Positions 33,266-39,567 of a stretch of 49,337 nucleotides of DNA are shown in pieces. The stretch lies in the sequence record OR861627.1; one strand, given 5' to 3'. The translations under genes and the position numbers were made by a program. Source of the DNA: Escherichia phage phiD2-2. How positions within the stretch are numbered: the first letter of the stretch is position 1; the number at the start of each line of letters is the position of its first letter. The notes under the pieces are model-generated. The model did not search any database. It was not told the DNA's origin and saw only the letters and a program-made list of their open reading frames with translations.

Positions 33266-36200
33266 ATGATTCAAAAAGTGATAAGTGGATCTAAAGGCGG
33301 CTCGCCTAAGCCTCATAATCCAGTTGAGATGGAAGACAATCTAATCTCAATCAACAAAATCAAGATCCTGTTAGCTGTATCTGATGGTGAAATTGACGAA
33401 ACATTCAGCCTGAAGCAGTTGATGTTTAACTCAGTCCCGGTGCAAAACGAGGATGGATCGTTCAACTTCGAAGGGGTAAAGGCTGAGTTCAGGCCGGGAA
33501 CTCAGACGCAGGAATACATCAAGGGCATGGAGGATAGTTCCAGCGAGGTAACTGTAAATCGTGAGGTTACTACCGATAACCCATACACGATCTCAGTGAC
33601 CAATAAAACACTATCGGCAATACGCATCAAAATGTTCATGCCTCGCGGCGTACGAATTGAAAGTAACGGTGATAAAAATGGCGTAAGAGTTGAGTATGAG
33701 GTGCAACAAGCTGTTGATGGCGGTTCGTTTGAGACTGTTCTTACTGACGTAATTGAAGGCAAAACAATGTCAGGTTACGACAGAAGTCGACGTGTAAACC
33801 TGCCTAGCTTTAACAACCAGGTAATATTCAGAGTTGTTCGAAAGACTCCAGACTCTAACGACTCTAACGTTGTTGATGCGATCCAGGTAAAGAGCTATGC
33901 CGAGGTGATTGATGCCAAATTCCGTTACCCTCTGACAGGTCTTCTTTTCGTCGAGTTCGACTCGAAGATGTTCCCAAACCAGTTACCTACGATCTCAATT
34001 CGTAAGCGCTGGAAGATTGTAAGCGTTCCGTCGAACTACGACCCAGAATCGCGAACATACAACGGCAATTGGGATGGCACTTTCAAAAAAGCATGGACGA
34101 ACAATCCGGCGTGGGTTCTTTATGACCTGATGATTAATCAGCGTTACGGCTTGGATCAGAAAGAGCTTGGTATCGCTGTCGATAAATGGGCGCTCTACGA
34201 GGCTGCGCAATATTGCGATCAGATGGTTCCTGATGGGAAGGGCGGGACGGAACCTCGATACCTTTGCGACGTGATAATCCAGTCTCAGACTGACGCTTAC
34301 AAGGTTATTCGAGATATTTGCTCAATCTTTCGAGGTATGAGCTTTTGGAATGGCGAAAGCATTTCGGTAATCATCGATAGGCCGCGTGAGCCTGCGTACA
34401 TCTTCACTAACGACAACGTGGTTAATGGTGACTTCTCCTACACGTTTGCAAGCGAAAAGAGCATGTACACGACGTGTAATGTGATGTTTGACGACGAGCA
34501 AAACATGTATCAGCAGGACGTTGAGCCAGTATTCGATCGTGAGGCTACTCTACGGTTCGGGAACAACGTAACGAGCATTACAGCGATCGGCTGCACACGT
34601 CGAAGCGAGGCCAACCGACGCGGGAGATGGATTCTGAAAACTAACCTCCGCAGCACTACGGTAAACTTCGCTACCGGACTTGAGGGTATGATTCCGACAA
34701 TCGGAGATGTTGTGGCAATAGCTGATAACTTCTGGTCAAGTAACTTGACGATGAACCTATCAGGGCGCTTGCTCGAAGTATCCGGTAGTCAGATTTTCTT
34801 GCCGCTCCGGGTGGATGCACGCGCGGGTGACTTTATTATCGTAAATAAGCCAGATGGCAAGCCCGTGAAGCGCACAATATCAAGTGTTAGTGCGGATGGT
34901 AAGACTATAGAGGTTAACATTGGCTTTGGCTTTCCTGTGAAGCCTAACACGGTATTCGCTATCGACCGCACCGACATTGCGTTACAGCAGTACGTCGTGA
35001 CAAAAATCGATAAGGGCGATGATGATGAGGAATTTACCTACAAAATAACGGCGGTGGAGTACGATCCTAACAAGTACGATGAGATTGATTACGGAGTTAA
35101 TATCGACGACCGACCGACGAGCATCGTTGAACCAGATCAGATCCCTAGACCGGAAAACGTGCAAGTGTCCTCAGAGTCACGAATCGTCCAGGGGATGAGC
35201 GTAGAAACGATGATTGTTAGCTGGGATAAAGTGCCGTACGCAGTTTTCTATGACGTCCAGTGGCGAAAGGATAACGGCAACTGGCAAAATGTACCGCAGA
35301 CAGCAAACAAAGAGGTATACGTTGAAGGTATTTACGCTGGCAACTATCAGGTTCGCGTTCGCTCCGTAGCTGGTTCCGGTACGACTTCAGGATGGTCAAA
35401 TGTCGTAGCTGCGACGCTGACGGGCAAACAAGGTGAGCCGGGTGGACCGATTAACCTTACAGCTACGGATGATGTTGTTTTTGGTATCCGTACAAAATGG
35501 GGGTTCTCTGATGGTTCTGGAGATACGGCCTATACAGAGTTGCAACAGTCACCAGATGGAACAGTGGATAACGCAAGTTTGCTTTCTTTGATTCCGTACC
35601 CGCAGCATGAGTATTATCACTCACCGATGCCTGGAGGGAATATTGTTTGGTATCGTGTAAGGACGGTTGATAGGATCGGTAACGTGTCTCAGTGGACTGA
35701 TTTTGTCAGAGGTATGGCATCAACAAACGTTGACGATATCATTGGGGAGATTTCTGTCGATATCGAAAACTCGCCGGGTTACGAGTGGCTTGTTGATAAC
35801 GCAACCGACAACGCGGCGCAGAACGCAGCTAACGCAGAGGCAGCAATAGAAAACGCGCTCGCCAATGACAAAGACGCGATCTACATGAAGAAGGAGAACG
35901 GAAAACGAAAAGCTGAGTACACGAAATCACTGAAACTTATTGCTGATGAGACGCAGGCGCGAGTGACGGCGATCGAGCAATTGAAGGCAAGTTTTGGCGA
36001 TCAGATTAGCGCTAGCAACAGCGAATTGCGTGAAGTTATCGCAACTGAGACTGGAGCGCTATCGCGTGAAATTGACCAACTCAGGGCAGAGATTGGTGAT
36101 GATATCCAGGCAAGTTTGACCGATATCAGAGAGGCTATAGCAAACGAGACTGAGGCGAGAACGCAAGCTGACTTGTCGTTAAGCGCGAGGCTTGGGAATA

Positions 36201-36685
36201 ATGAGGCAGCACTTTCTCAAAAACTTGATTCGTGGAGCAATGCAGATTCGACTGGTGCAATGTACGGCGTCAAGCTCGGTCTGAAGTATAACGGCCAAGA
36301 ATACAGTGCAGGCATGGCTATGTCTCTGATTGGTTCCGGAGCTGCGGTTAAGGCGCAGATTTTGTTTGAGGCATCACGATTTGCCATCATGAATGGAATG
36401 AATGGTCAGACTCAGTACCCATTCGTTGTTGAGAATGGCCAGGTTATTTTAAGTAGCGCGATTATCAAGAACGGATTCATCACGAATGCGATGATTGGTA
36501 ATGTTATTCAATCGAATAACTATGTCGTTAACAAGGCTGGCTGGATACTTGACAAGGGTGGAACATTAGAAAACTACGGAAGTGACGCTGAGGGTGCAAT
36601 GAAGCAAACTAATACCACAATATCTGTTAGGGATGCGAGTGGTCGCCTGAGGGTTCAGATTGGCAGGTTGACTGGTTCATGGTAA
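33266..36685 (+). CDS. central tail fibre / tip attachment protein (lambda gpJ-like)
   Basis: 1139 aa after the M-L-K-I series; coiled-coil segment near residue 850-950. Confidence 0.8.
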   Translation: MIQKVISGSKGGSPKPHNPVEMEDNLISINKIKILLAVSDGEIDETFSLKQLMFNSVPVQNEDGSFNFEGVKAEFRPGTQTQEYIKGMEDSSSEVTVNREVTTDNPYTISVTNKTLSAIRIKMFMPRGVRIESNGDKNGVRVEYEVQQAVDGGSFETVLTDVIEGKTMSGYDRSRRVNLPSFNNQVIFRVVRKTPDSNDSNVVDAIQVKSYAEVIDAKFRYPLTGLLFVEFDSKMFPNQLPTISIRKRWKIVSVPSNYDPESRTYNGNWDGTFKKAWTNNPAWVLYDLMINQRYGLDQKELGIAVDKWALYEAAQYCDQMVPDGKGGTEPRYLCDVIIQSQTDAYKVIRDICSIFRGMSFWNGESISVIIDRPREPAYIFTNDNVVNGDFSYTFASEKSMYTTCNVMFDDEQNMYQQDVEPVFDREATLRFGNNVTSITAIGCTRRSEANRRGRWILKTNLRSTTVNFATGLEGMIPTIGDVVAIADNFWSSNLTMNLSGRLLEVSGSQIFLPLRVDARAGDFIIVNKPDGKPVKRTISSVSADGKTIEVNIGFGFPVKPNTVFAIDRTDIALQQYVVTKIDKGDDDEEFTYKITAVEYDPNKYDEIDYGVNIDDRPTSIVEPDQIPRPENVQVSSESRIVQGMSVETMIVSWDKVPYAVFYDVQWRKDNGNWQNVPQTANKEVYVEGIYAGNYQVRVRSVAGSGTTSGWSNVVAATLTGKQGEPGGPINLTATDDVVFGIRTKWGFSDGSGDTAYTELQQSPDGTVDNASLLSLIPYPQHEYYHSPMPGGNIVWYRVRTVDRIGNVSQWTDFVRGMASTNVDDIIGEISVDIENSPGYEWLVDNATDNAAQNAANAEAAIENALANDKDAIYMKKENGKRKAEYTKSLKLIADETQARVTAIEQLKASFGDQISASNSELREVIATETGALSREIDQLRAEIGDDIQASLTDIREAIANETEARTQADLSLSARLGNNEAALSQKLDSWSNADSTGAMYGVKLGLKYNGQEYSAGMAMSLIGSGAAVKAQILFEASRFAIMNGMNGQTQYPFVVENGQVILSSAIIKNGFITNAMIGNVIQSNNYVVNKAGWILDKGGTLENYGSDAEGAMKQTNTTISVRDASGRLRVQIGRLTGSW

Positions 36686-36690
36686 TATCA

Positions 36691-36718
36691 AGGGCATCGA
36701 GAGATGCTCTTTTCTTTT
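36691..36718 (+). terminator. rho-independent terminator after the J-like gene
   Basis: Stem GGGCATC/GATGCTC then TTTTCTTTT. Confidence 0.6.
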
Positions 36719-36730
36719 GGAGGATTTATT

Positions 36731-37036
36731 ATGGCGTACGGTATATCAACTTGGGACGCAAATGGCGTTTATAATAACTATGGAATTAAGCCTGTTACGG
36801 TTGTTGGTTGGAACTTTTTGTCAGCAGGACAGAATTCAGCATCGTTCAGCTATCAAGTTCCTCCTGGTATGCATGTGAACTACGTTATAAGCCTTGACAA
36901 TGGCGCCATTAGTGGGCCTGGCAGGAAAATTATTGCTAGCGGTAATACGATAACAGTAACGCCAACAAACTCACCCGGGCCAAACGTGTACCCATCATCA
37001 AACTGTTACTTAATAGCATATCTGGAGAATGATTAA
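36731..37036 (+). CDS. small tail-fibre-region protein (about 101 aa)
   Basis: Track ORF trimmed to MAYGISTW with GGAGGA RBS; N-terminus resembles the next gene (MSYGAF). Confidence 0.5.
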   Translation: MAYGISTWDANGVYNNYGIKPVTVVGWNFLSAGQNSASFSYQVPPGMHVNYVISLDNGAISGPGRKIIASGNTITVTPTNSPGPNVYPSSNCYLIAYLEND

Positions 37037-37725
37037 TGTCATACGGTGCTTTTATAGATGTAAACGGAAACCCATTCATAACCCCGTTATCCACGCCATT
37101 CGCCTTATATGAGAGAGGGGAAATTCAATCAGTAAATGTTAGTGGTTCACAGGTTGCGGAGAGATATGTTCGGATACCTACAGGTGTTCCGGTTATAGCT
37201 TTTTGCAAAACAACAAACACGCAGCAGGGGACCGCGCTTTCAGCCTTTACTTTCAGAAGCGGACCCAATGTTGGAACTGTTTATATAAGGGGGACAAATC
37301 CAGCAAACCAATCATACACGCTAACATACTACATATTTGCCATATTTGAGCAGTCACTACCGAGCTGGGGTATGGCAATATGGGATTCGTCAGGAAAGCT
37401 AGTGCTGACAAATGAGACAAAAGTCCTTAGTGATTTGGTTACAATCGGCACTCCTGGATACGCTGGAGGTGGATTAAACATAGACGCAACACTCAGCGGA
37501 AGCTACGCAGTTGTTCCAACTATACTTGGCAACTATCAAATTGTTATTGGCAGGCTGCCAACTGGGCAACCCATAATAGGAAACTCAACAGCAGGCAGCT
37601 CATGCAGATACAACGGGAGCACAACGAGAATAAATGCAGCAGCAACCACTGCGGCAGGTCGGATATTGAACACCACGAATAATGGAAATATTATAACAGC
37701 AATAAAAACGGCAGCATACGACTAA
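37036..37725 (+). CDS. tail-fibre-region protein, possible receptor-binding accessory (229 aa)
   Basis: Track ORF with ATGA overlap to the previous gene; Gly/Thr/Asn-rich. Confidence 0.5.
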   Translation: MSYGAFIDVNGNPFITPLSTPFALYERGEIQSVNVSGSQVAERYVRIPTGVPVIAFCKTTNTQQGTALSAFTFRSGPNVGTVYIRGTNPANQSYTLTYYIFAIFEQSLPSWGMAIWDSSGKLVLTNETKVLSDLVTIGTPGYAGGGLNIDATLSGSYAVVPTILGNYQIVIGRLPTGQPIIGNSTAGSSCRYNGSTTRINAAATTAAGRILNTTNNGNIITAIKTAAYD

Positions 37726-37750
37726 GCCCCTTTCGGGGCTTTTCTTTTAC
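37724..37750. terminator. bidirectional terminator between fibre-region gene and lipoprotein gene
   Basis: Stem AAGCCCC/GGGGCTT with TTTC loop then T-run. Confidence 0.65.
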
Positions 37751-37980
37751 ATCGAGCAATCGTGAGACTTGAAGTTATTCTCTGATACGTAATGGAATGA
37801 GAATGGATACCCAGCACGTAACAGCATCTCATCACCGCGCATCTTTGATCCAAAAACGGAAACCGAGTACTCTGCGTCACCTGATTCATAAATCGCAGTA
37901 CAAGTGCGCTCAGGCATCGATGAGCAACCAGTCAGGATGAATGCCGCAGCAATAATGGTGATTAATTTTTTCATTTGCAT
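37747..37980 (-). CDS. outer-membrane lipoprotein, Cor/Llp-like superinfection-exclusion candidate
   Basis: Convergent to the fibre genes; signal peptide with lipobox (MKKLITIIAAAFILTGCSS); short Cys-containing mature part; GAGGA RBS. Track start 38040 trimmed. Confidence 0.5.
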   Translation of the reverse strand: MQMKKLITIIAAAFILTGCSSMPERTCTAIYESGDAEYSVSVFGSKMRGDEMLLRAGYPFSFHYVSENNFKSHDCSM

Positions 37981-38040
37981 GTCCTCGTCGTTAGTGTGAT
38001 TGCATTGTATGTCGCATTTACTTTTATTGCAATAGCGCAA

Positions 38041-38502
38041 TTACAATTTTTTTTCGTGTAACGGGTGTCTATTTTTGTAACTGGAGATGGTGTTACAAAA
38101 TCTACCCAATCCGAACGCAGGTAGATATGATAAAAACTCTATATAATATATATAGATAGATAATATTTAATTTTAGCTTTATATATATAATTATTGTTGT
38201 GTAACAGTTGTCTATCGTGTAACTGGTGATTTGATTGATTCGTCAAATTTCTATCATATATGTTCAAAATTTAATCAATATGGATTCTACTTGTAGCTAT
38301 CCCTGTATTTCTAAGAAAAAGCGGTTACAAGTATTACACAGTAGACATCACATAAAAATAGACTTAAGCCATTGATTCCGTTAATGCTGGTTGTAACTTG
38401 AGCGATATAGACACGCTATTACACACCAATTACATGTATCCGATTGACTAAACGCTGTTAATGGCTATAATGGATTCATCGTAAACGAGGGAGATAAACG
38501 CA
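38041..38502. promoter_or_regulatory. AT-rich divergent control hub 2 with GTGTAAC-N-GTCTAT-N-GTAACTGG iterons
   Basis: Direct copies at 38055-38084 and 38197-38226, inverted copies near 38320-38350 and 38388-38426, TA-rich tract 38130-38200, consensus promoter at 38444-38471. Confidence 0.55.
38444..38471 (+). promoter_or_regulatory. sigma70-type promoter for the recombination operon
   Basis: TTGACT, 16-bp spacer, TATAAT; about 30 nt upstream of the exonuclease ATG. Confidence 0.65.
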
Positions 38503-39567
38503 ATGTTCCAGGTGTTCACATCAAGTCAGCTTTCTAATGACGAGTATCATAGCAACGAAGGTTGGGCGGCAGAGTATGTAAGCGGTTCTAGCCTTGCAGA
38601 AATTTATCAGACTTGCCCGGCCAACTGGAGATTCAAGAAGAATGAGACAACGAAGGCGCTGGAGTTTGGTACTCAGTCGCATACCAACTTTGAGAGCCGA
38701 GATCTGTTTACTGCAACGTATGCACGTTGTCCGGCTCCGTCAGAGTTCAAGGATCTGATTACGTCACAAGCCGCACTGGCTGCAAAATTAAAATCTTTCG
38801 GCCTGAAAGGTACATCCGGTAAGCAGTACCCGGACCTCATCAAGATGATGGTTGATTGCGGTGAAGAGCTAAACGTCCAATATCTGATCGAGTTGATTGC
38901 GGAAGCAGAGGCGCGCTCTGAAGGAAAGAAATTGGTTGACGCTGACAAATACGACGCTTGCATGAAGATGAGAGCAATCCTTGAACAAAATCCTGATCAC
39001 GAAGCGTGCATCAACAGTGAAACGGCGCAGCGTGAGATTTCAATCTTCGGTGAGATATCCGGCGTCAAGGTTAAGGTTCGACTTGACCATCTGGACTACA
39101 AAGAGAATGTTCCAGGTCGTGTCCTGACTGGTTATGATGAGAATGGAGATCCGGTATTCGAAGATGTTATTTTCCCTGAAGCACTGATTATCACTGACTT
39201 CAAAACAACAATGAGCGCCAACCCGTTAGAGTTCCCGAGACTGGCATACAATCACGGGTATTATCTGAAAATGGCCTTGCAGCATGATCTGCTACGACGC
39301 GCAATCCAGGCTGGCGCTTTTGAAGGCAACTTCCCGGAAGATATCCCGATCGTAGTTCGATTGCTGGCTCAGGAGAAAAAAGAGCCTTACATCGCACTTG
39401 CTTACCGTATGACTATGGAGCAAATCAGGATCGGTCGTAGCCAGTATGTTAGCGTAGTCCACACTTACAAGGCTTGCTCTGAAATGGATGTTTGGCCTGG
39501 GTACGCTGGCGACGCAAGCGAGATTGAACTTGAAACGCCATCATGGGTGCGTTACCAAAATAAGTAA
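38503..39567 (+). CDS. PD-(D/E)XK-type recombination exonuclease (RecE/YqaJ-like)
   Basis: 354 aa upstream of Erf and SSB; RLDHLD, ITDFKTT (D-x-K) and YYLKMALQ segments fit the nuclease core. Confidence 0.6.
   Translation: MFQVFTSSQLSNDEYHSNEGWAAEYVSGSSLAEIYQTCPANWRFKKNETTKALEFGTQSHTNFESRDLFTATYARCPAPSEFKDLITSQAALAAKLKSFGLKGTSGKQYPDLIKMMVDCGEELNVQYLIELIAEAEARSEGKKLVDADKYDACMKMRAILEQNPDHEACINSETAQREISIFGEISGVKVKVRLDHLDYKENVPGRVLTGYDENGDPVFEDVIFPEALIITDFKTTMSANPLEFPRLAYNHGYYLKMALQHDLLRRAIQAGAFEGNFPEDIPIVVRLLAQEKKEPYIALAYRMTMEQIRIGRSQYVSVVHTYKACSEMDVWPGYAGDASEIELETPSWVRYQNK

Follow-up and report, generated by a model that had tools for sequence, protein, structure and literature searches.

The window, that is, the whole stretch of 49,337 nucleotides of Escherichia phage phiD2-2 that we analysed, is a complete Tunavirus (T1-like) genome, and its minus-strand gene at 37747..37974 is the Tunavirus cor gene. 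The ORF itself, PHROG and NCBIfam matches, and the pN/pS ratio identify the product, 75 aa plus a stop codon, as the predicted precursor of a Cor superinfection-exclusion lipoprotein. The most likely mechanism, which by analogy with Llp of phage T5 we consider highly probable, is that Cor jams the outer-membrane protein FhuA from the periplasmic side. In phiD2-2, cor is an already known gene: it is annotated in sister phages, and its interpretation has been published. Ever since the T1 genome paper, the T1 record has labelled the gene "lysogenic conversion protein Cor, similar to N15 Cor", and RefSeq gives the name Cor to the identical JMPW2 protein (YP_009594179.1).

The cor gene and its lipoprotein product

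The minus-strand ORF was confirmed, with its TAA stop at 37749-37747. Two in-frame ATG codons could start it: an upstream ATG at 37980, which would give a 77-aa product beginning MQMKK, and the next ATG at 37974..37972, which gives a 75-aa product beginning MKK. A Shine-Dalgarno sequence read from the DNA (GAGGA, 37982-37986, minus strand) is conserved in eight phages and coincides with an RBS annotated in the T1 record. Its spacing is 7 nt to the MKK start and 1 nt to the upstream ATG. The extra in-frame ATG, two codons upstream, is present in phiD2-2, FCWL1, JMPW2, and IME18 and absent from four other relatives; in the alignment, T1, JMPW1, Sfin-3, and LeonhardEuler have ATA instead. A cor CDS of 228 nt is annotated in five aligned relatives (T1, JMPW2, JMPW1, Sfin-3, and IME18), and the LeonhardEuler record has the same 228-nt CDS, labelled hypothetical. 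Based on the GAGGA spacing, the ATA in four relatives, and the 228-nt CDS in the relatives' records, we place the start of cor at 37974. The original prediction, a lipoprotein of about 77 aa on 37747-37980, thus had the right ORF and strand and needs a shorter product of 75 aa, with the upstream ATG not conserved. The full precursor reads MKKLITIIAAAFILTGCSSMPERTCTAIYESGDAEYSVSVFGSKMRGDEMLLRAGYPFSFHYVSENNFKSHDCSM.

Relative to five diverged relatives, cor has 10-18 synonymous and 4-9 non-synonymous differences, which corresponds to a pN/pS of 0.11-0.14 (about 0.13). cor is a real gene under purifying selection. Two plus-strand ORFs that overlap it (37797-37940 and 37904-37999) were set aside because the conservation pattern fits the minus-strand frame. 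The FCWL1 record leaves cor unannotated (PP558327, 1148-1375 of the compared stretch) though it encodes an identical protein, which is an annotation gap.

The precursor begins with a predicted lipoprotein signal peptide, residues 1-16 (MKKLITIIAAAFILTG; 37927..37974, minus strand), recognized from the sequence, Pfam LPAM_1, and the family alignment, with predicted cleavage before Cys17. It reads MKKLITIIAAAFI, then LTGC, then SS, and has the layout of a basic n-region, a hydrophobic core, and a lipobox; the order of n-region, h-region, and lipobox is kept across the family alignment. LPAM_1 matches residues 1-18 with 20.1 bits against a cut-off of 20. The lipobox L-T-G-C, read from the sequence, spans 37924..37935 (minus strand), and its Cys17, nearly invariant in the 15-sequence family alignment, is the predicted lipidated N-terminus of the mature protein. 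Lipoproteins are sorted by the established Lol +2 rule. The residue at +2 after Cys17 is Ser, not Asp, leaving no inner-membrane retention signal, so Cor is predicted to reside in the outer membrane. Like other Cor proteins, the phiD2-2 precursor therefore has a putative signal peptidase II signal with a lipobox and without Asp at +2.

The mature domain (37750..37926, minus strand) comprises 59 aa and appears as a small beta-barrel with a Cys25-Cys73 pair and an AGYPF motif. This agrees with the Cor-family pattern of a mature domain of about 58 aa, two cysteines near its ends, and a (K/R)AGYPF motif. Cys25 and Cys73, the two further cysteines of the mature domain, are invariant across the family. 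Among the 15 aligned sequences, which go down to 34% identity, C25, V38, G55, F58, F68, and C73 are invariant, while Cys17, G32, and Y56 are nearly so. The signal, LTGC lipobox, and short Cys-containing mature domain that had been proposed at the outset are borne out by the LPAM_1 match and by the conservation of Cys17, Cys25, and Cys73.

Kinship with Cor and Llp

Residues 1-74 match the NCBIfam equivalog NF047972 "phage exclusion lipoprotein Cor" with 57.5 bits (curated cut-off, 31) and PHROG 1119 "Cor superinfection exclusion protein" with an E-value of 1.9e-30. Based on the curated NCBIfam profile and the PHROG match, we assign the phiD2-2 gene product to the Cor family. Pfam has no Cor model; there, the only matches are LPAM_1, a generic lipid-attachment motif, and, in the signal-peptide region, PF24052 "Phage lipoprotein family" below threshold.

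A tblastn search with Cor matched 197 phage records. Protein identity is 100% in FCWL1, ECO104 4-5-2, and JMPW2 and 90.7% in T1. Other Drexlerviridae and Dhillonvirus phages reach about 45-59%, and the classical Cor proteins (N15, HK140, HK225, mEp043, and mEp213) 33-36%. N15 Cor aligns over 76 columns at 36% identity (pairwise BLASTP E 2e-18; tblastn against the phage collection E 3e-6). The seven substitutions between phiD2-2 Cor and T1 Cor are D33G, S39Y, D48K, L51V, H61N, N66K, and M75I. The orthologous genes of T1 (CPTT1_048, orf30), JMPW2, IME18, and Sfin-3 share the position, orientation, and 228-nt length of phiD2-2 cor.

A word-indexed protein search with Cor returned close relatives only, and an exhaustive phmmer search of representatives gave 14 matches. 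We rejected three long proteins (P0023, P0028, and P0031; 665-1318 aa, TPR-like or beta-repeat), whose E-values of 1e-5 to 1e-13 are summed over stretches, as repeat-driven false positives and not Cor fusions. Separately, the unannotated records MG065688, MG065679, and MG065637 ("Campylobacter phage A110b / A13a / A15b"), whose host is given as C. jejuni, contain Cor at 56-85% identity. Their Cor sequences suggest that they are T1-like enterobacterial phages, either mislabelled or contaminant carry-over.

The experimentally studied FhuA-exclusion lipoproteins are the Cor proteins of the temperate phages N15, phi80, HK022, and mEp167. They belong to the same family (NF047972/PHROG 1119), are of the same size, and have the lipobox, Cys pair, and AGYPF motif in common with phiD2-2 Cor, as well as the same cassette after the J gene, with gp22/gp23 homologues. 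However, the temperate-phage proteins are only 33-36% identical to phiD2-2 Cor.

Llp of phage T5 is more distant. In a single-sequence phmmer search against PDB sequences, it was the only match, at a non-significant E-value of 0.56. With the Cor profile, Llp was the best match among PDB sequences (E 0.0019), and hhalign aligned the Cor profile with Llp over 72 columns at a probability of 95.5% (E 1.3e-8), pairing Cor C25 and C73 with the cysteines of the Llp Cys11-Cys58 disulfide. Llp itself matches PHROG 1119, the same PHROG as Cor, with an E-value of 1.1e-19. Identity between T5 Llp (PDB 8A60 chain B, 7QJF) and Cor is about 20-26%, with the signal peptide and first strands contributing much of the sequence signal.

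An AF2 model computed from the alignment has a pLDDT of 93-96 over residues 21-70 and forms a small four-stranded barrel. Foldseek against the PDB gave no significant E-value, with Llp mixed among Tudor, chromo, and SH3-like barrels; in that search, Llp had the lowest rmsd and shared the top target-normalised TM-score (0.62). The top BFVD fold matches were to a superinfection-exclusion protein from a Dhillonvirus and to lipoproteins from T5-like phages. On the strength of the model, we count the phiD2-2 protein as probably having the Llp fold with its Cys11-Cys58 disulfide. Altogether, the comparisons support placing Cor and T5 Llp in one superfamily, with a distant relationship that is not orthology. 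A recent preprint likewise treats Cor and Llp as one family with a shared fold, from predicted structures (bioRxiv 10.64898/2026.03.26.714494).

The original prediction had likened the protein to both Cor and Llp. The likeness to Cor stands firmly (57.5 bits against 31 for NF047972, E 1.9e-30 for PHROG 1119, 36% identity to N15 Cor). The likeness to Llp comes from hhalign and the fold, with single-sequence phmmer weak.

A further small phage lipoprotein, Rtp45 of the Drexlerviridae phage Rtp (PDB 9RPS), is likewise encoded downstream of gpJ and blocks the phage's own outer-membrane receptor. Its target, however, is LptD (LptDE-directed), not a TonB-dependent transporter. Against the Cor profile, Rtp45 scores E 0.51 over the signal peptide only, which is no meaningful similarity.

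Cassette, candidate promoter, and hairpin

cor is a lone minus-strand gene between two plus-strand blocks, one of structural and tail genes (about 16.6-37.7 kb) and one of recombination genes (38.5-40.7 kb; RecE-like, Erf-like, and SSB). The 1.9-kb locus at 36600-38500 is 99.9% identical to Escherichia phage FCWL1, 95.2% to T1, and 94.6% to IME18. Upstream in the tail block, on the plus strand, lies the gene for a J-like central tail-fibre/tail-tip protein of 1139 aa (33266..36685; Pfam Phage_Tail_Tip, FNIII-A_GpJ, and Phage-tail_3; PHROG 31). It is followed on the same strand by a 101-aa gene (36731..37036; PHROG 557, E 3.4e-31), homologous to T1 orf32 and N15 gp22, and by a 229-aa gene (37036..37725; PHROG 425, E 4.6e-67), homologous to T1 orf31 and N15 gp23 and encoding a putative receptor-recognition or membrane protein. 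A gap of 21 nt separates the stop of the 229-aa gene from the convergent cor gene.

The J-like protein is 1139 aa long (3420-nt CDS) in phiD2-2, FCWL1, JMPW2, JMPW1, SH2, Sfin-3, LeonhardEuler, and IME18, and 1172 aa (3519-nt CDS) in T1. The tail-tip proteins of T1 and phiD2-2 thus differ in length by 33 aa despite about 95% DNA identity at the 3' end.

Both intermediate proteins are homologous to their N15 counterparts (58% identity of the 101-aa protein to gp22 and 52% of the 229-aa protein to gp23) and occupy the same place before cor. For this reason, the J-gp22-gp23-cor cassette as a whole is judged from sequence to be conserved relative to N15. The gene order after the J-like gene is the same, and the orientation of cor is inverted. 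As an observation in its own right, the two partners are better conserved (58% and 52%) than Cor itself (36%).

Neither the 101-aa nor the 229-aa protein has a Pfam or NCBIfam match. The two have been read as receptor-binding proteins (PMC8594841) and as membrane proteins linked to exclusion (PMC13164509). A published structural attempt on them gave no fold matches (PMC13164509), and the T1 cryo-EM paper did not resolve the distal tip and the two small proteins.

These results bear on the original prediction, which had cor on the opposite strand just downstream of the J-like and small fibre genes and argued from this placement for a receptor-blocking lipoprotein. The placement is as described, and the argument from it is strengthened by the N15 gp22 and gp23 homologues, which in N15 sit between the tail-tip gene and cor. 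The label "small fibre" is unproven for two proteins that have no Pfam or NCBIfam match.

The arrangement differs from that of T5, where llp is divergent from the pb5 gene (oad), whereas phiD2-2 cor is convergent with unrelated small genes. The neighbours of phiD2-2 cor belong to PHROG 557 and PHROG 425; no pb5 homologue lies beside it, and the T5-type divergent arrangement is not found here.

A candidate sigma-70 promoter of cor, TTGCAA-17 nt-TACAAT (38032..38004, minus strand), was found by consensus scan with 9/12 matches. The eight aligned Tunavirus genomes agree at every position of both hexamers, while the flanking intergenic DNA varies at 10-15% of columns. A promoter had been anticipated in this intergenic hub, and the predicted element, with its hexamers conserved in 8/8 genomes, fits that expectation.

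On the other side of cor, a terminator scan of the 21-nt gap between the convergent genes found a GC-rich hairpin, AAGCCCC-TTTC-GGGGCTT (stem 37724-37741, element 37724..37751, both strands). It folds at -13.0 kcal/mol on the plus strand (z -2.8) and -14.7 kcal/mol on the minus strand (z -2.4). On the plus strand the hairpin leads into a T-run; the cor transcript forms the same stem without one. The T1 record has a terminator annotated at this site. The hairpin is accordingly annotated here as the predicted rho-independent terminator of the plus-strand tail genes. T1 and the Tunavirus relatives have the same Shine-Dalgarno sequence, promoter hexamers, and shared hairpin as phiD2-2.

Several other elements occupy the hub between cor and the recE-like gene. 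A GTGTAAC-N-GGTG motif is clustered at 38056-38435, where five of its 18 matches in the window (≤2 mismatches) fall within 380 bp. They are laid out as two pairs (18-19 nt within a pair, 143 nt between the pairs) and a single inverted copy, and could be operator sites for a regulator of divergent promoters; the cluster is only partly conserved in T1. Mid-hub, the DNA at 38143-38191 is palindromic, (TA)n-like, and very rich in A and T, with several inverted repeats that overlap one another; it may be bent or melt easily. Of the promoter-like sites in the hub, the strongest is a near-consensus sigma-70 promoter on the plus strand (TTGACT-16-TATAAT, 38444-38471, 11/12), 32 nt ahead of the RecE-like exonuclease gene (38503-39567). 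The hub also contains a 46-aa TTG-initiated plus-strand ORF at 38235-38375, which by alignment offset corresponds to the T1 hypothetical protein CPTT1_049.

N15 cor is read in the direction of the tail genes; in phiD2-2 it is inverted and convergent and has its own candidate promoter. The Tunavirus gene thus lies the other way round relative to the N15 cassette and, with a strictly conserved candidate promoter, faces the tail operon across the shared hairpin. We suggest tentatively, with slightly less than even confidence, that this rearrangement may uncouple Cor from late tail transcription and allow early expression, and that convergent transcription could add antisense or interference control against the putative receptor-recognition genes. 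The identity of the protein is the same under this reading.

Predicted receptor block in a virulent phage

FhuA is the ferrichrome transporter and the terminal receptor of T1-type phages. In the mechanism that we favour, host RNA polymerase would transcribe cor leftward from its own sigma-70-type promoter, independently of the rightward tail operon. The 75-aa precursor would be exported, lipidated on Cys17, and cut there by signal peptidase II. The resulting 59-aa, disulfide-clamped beta-barrel would bind FhuA on its periplasmic side and lock its plug and extracellular loops, as has been shown structurally for T5 Llp, such that the phage receptor-binding proteins could not engage. Neither that phage nor others that depend on FhuA would then continue to adsorb to the infected cell or its debris. 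For phiD2-2 Cor, we infer that it targets FhuA, how it binds, when it is expressed, and that it causes exclusion.

FhuA binding, predicted for Cor, has been solved for T5 Llp. Llp is periplasmic and binds a non-native state of the FhuA plug; by reverse allostery, EL7 and EL8 fold inward and block pb5 (PMC9586334). The authors of that structure consider that Cor of T1 and phi80 likely acts alike (PMC9586334). The KanT1 paper presents an AF3 model (ipTM 0.84) in which a T1-like Cor is docked against FhuA on its periplasmic side (PMC13164509). In our search of the accessible literature, we found no direct experiment on T1-type Cor; the exclusion data concern the Cor proteins of phi80, N15, and mEp167, which are about 33-36% identical. 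Cor goes unmentioned in the J Virol 2023 paper on FhuA and in that on the T1 outbreak. For mEp167 Cor, the 2018 report by Arguijo-Hernandez reportedly points to a need for other outer-membrane proteins. Such a need is not predicted by a simple one-to-one Llp-like mechanism.

The receptor itself is best predicted from the cassette. T1 and IME18 use FhuA (PMC8594841), and the ten BASEL phages from Drexlerviridae and Dhillonvirus with FhuA as receptor carry Cor plus both upstream genes; across the BASEL phages, the cassette tracks FhuA use (PMC13164509). Lipoproteins of the Cor/Llp family are also found in BtuB-dependent phages (PMC13164509), and membership of the family alone therefore does not fix the receptor. 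Our prediction of FhuA for phiD2-2 follows instead from the whole cassette, whose DNA is roughly 95% identical to that of T1 and IME18. The suggestion that Cor predicts the receptor used by the adjacent fibre proteins holds in this form, by way of cassette identity, and not by way of the family assignment.

The benefit to the phage may lie elsewhere than in the exclusion of competitors. FhuA would be inactivated in the same way, and the gain would be that the phage's own progeny are spared abortive adsorption to FhuA on lysed debris and vesicles. T1-like phages are virulent and kill the cell fast, cor is under purifying selection in these virulent genomes, and the KanT1 paper lists the prevention of adsorption to lysed-cell remnants as a role (PMC13164509). 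However, this benefit is compatible with exclusion, the sequence does not distinguish the two roles, and the stand-alone candidate sigma-70 promoter fits early expression, which would serve exclusion too. We regard progeny protection as the main benefit as possible, while leaning against it.

That the lipoprotein blocks another TonB-dependent transporter, such as BtuB, in place of FhuA is very unlikely. Cor-like proteins have been reported in the BtuB-dependent Markadamsvirinae and Tempevirinae (PMC13164509), and the fold matches in BFVD include lipoproteins of other T5-like phages such as DT571/2. Yet the protein is 90.7% identical to T1 Cor, the locus from J to cor is about 95% identical to the FhuA users T1 and IME18, and the accompanying two-gene cassette is of the FhuA-linked type.

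A decaying or non-expressed remnant is still harder to credit. The nearest GenBank relative, FCWL1, does leave cor unannotated, but a pN/pS of about 0.13, an ORF that is unbroken in eight genomes, which also conserve its Shine-Dalgarno sequence and promoter hexamers, and the retention of every family-invariant residue all speak against decay.

That cor encodes a lysis lipoprotein, namely an Rz1-like outer-membrane spanin, or some unrelated small lipoprotein has a negligible likelihood. PHROG does give weak matches, two of them to Rz-like spanins (E 0.02-0.08) and others to numerous unknown lipoprotein families, but most of these, including both spanin ones, span only the signal peptide (residues 1-24), whereas the full-length matches are to Cor, and the locus has no partner i-spanin gene (no such minus-strand ORF). 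The Rz1-like o-spanin was rejected on the same grounds, with no match beyond the signal peptide and no overlapping or adjoining i-spanin partner; T1-like phages encode a unimolecular spanin elsewhere (PMC13164509).

FhuA jamming by Cor thus remains the preferred reading, in a setting that differs from that of the temperate phages. phiD2-2 is a virulent siphophage, and its cor cannot serve as a prophage "lysogenic conversion" gene, unlike that of temperate N15-type phages. For annotation, the gap in FCWL1 is filled, and the start of cor can be fixed at 37974. The practical value of cor is as a receptor marker: together with the roughly 95% identity of the cassette, it predicts that phiD2-2 uses FhuA, and that infected or Cor-expressing cells would resist T1, T5, and phi80.
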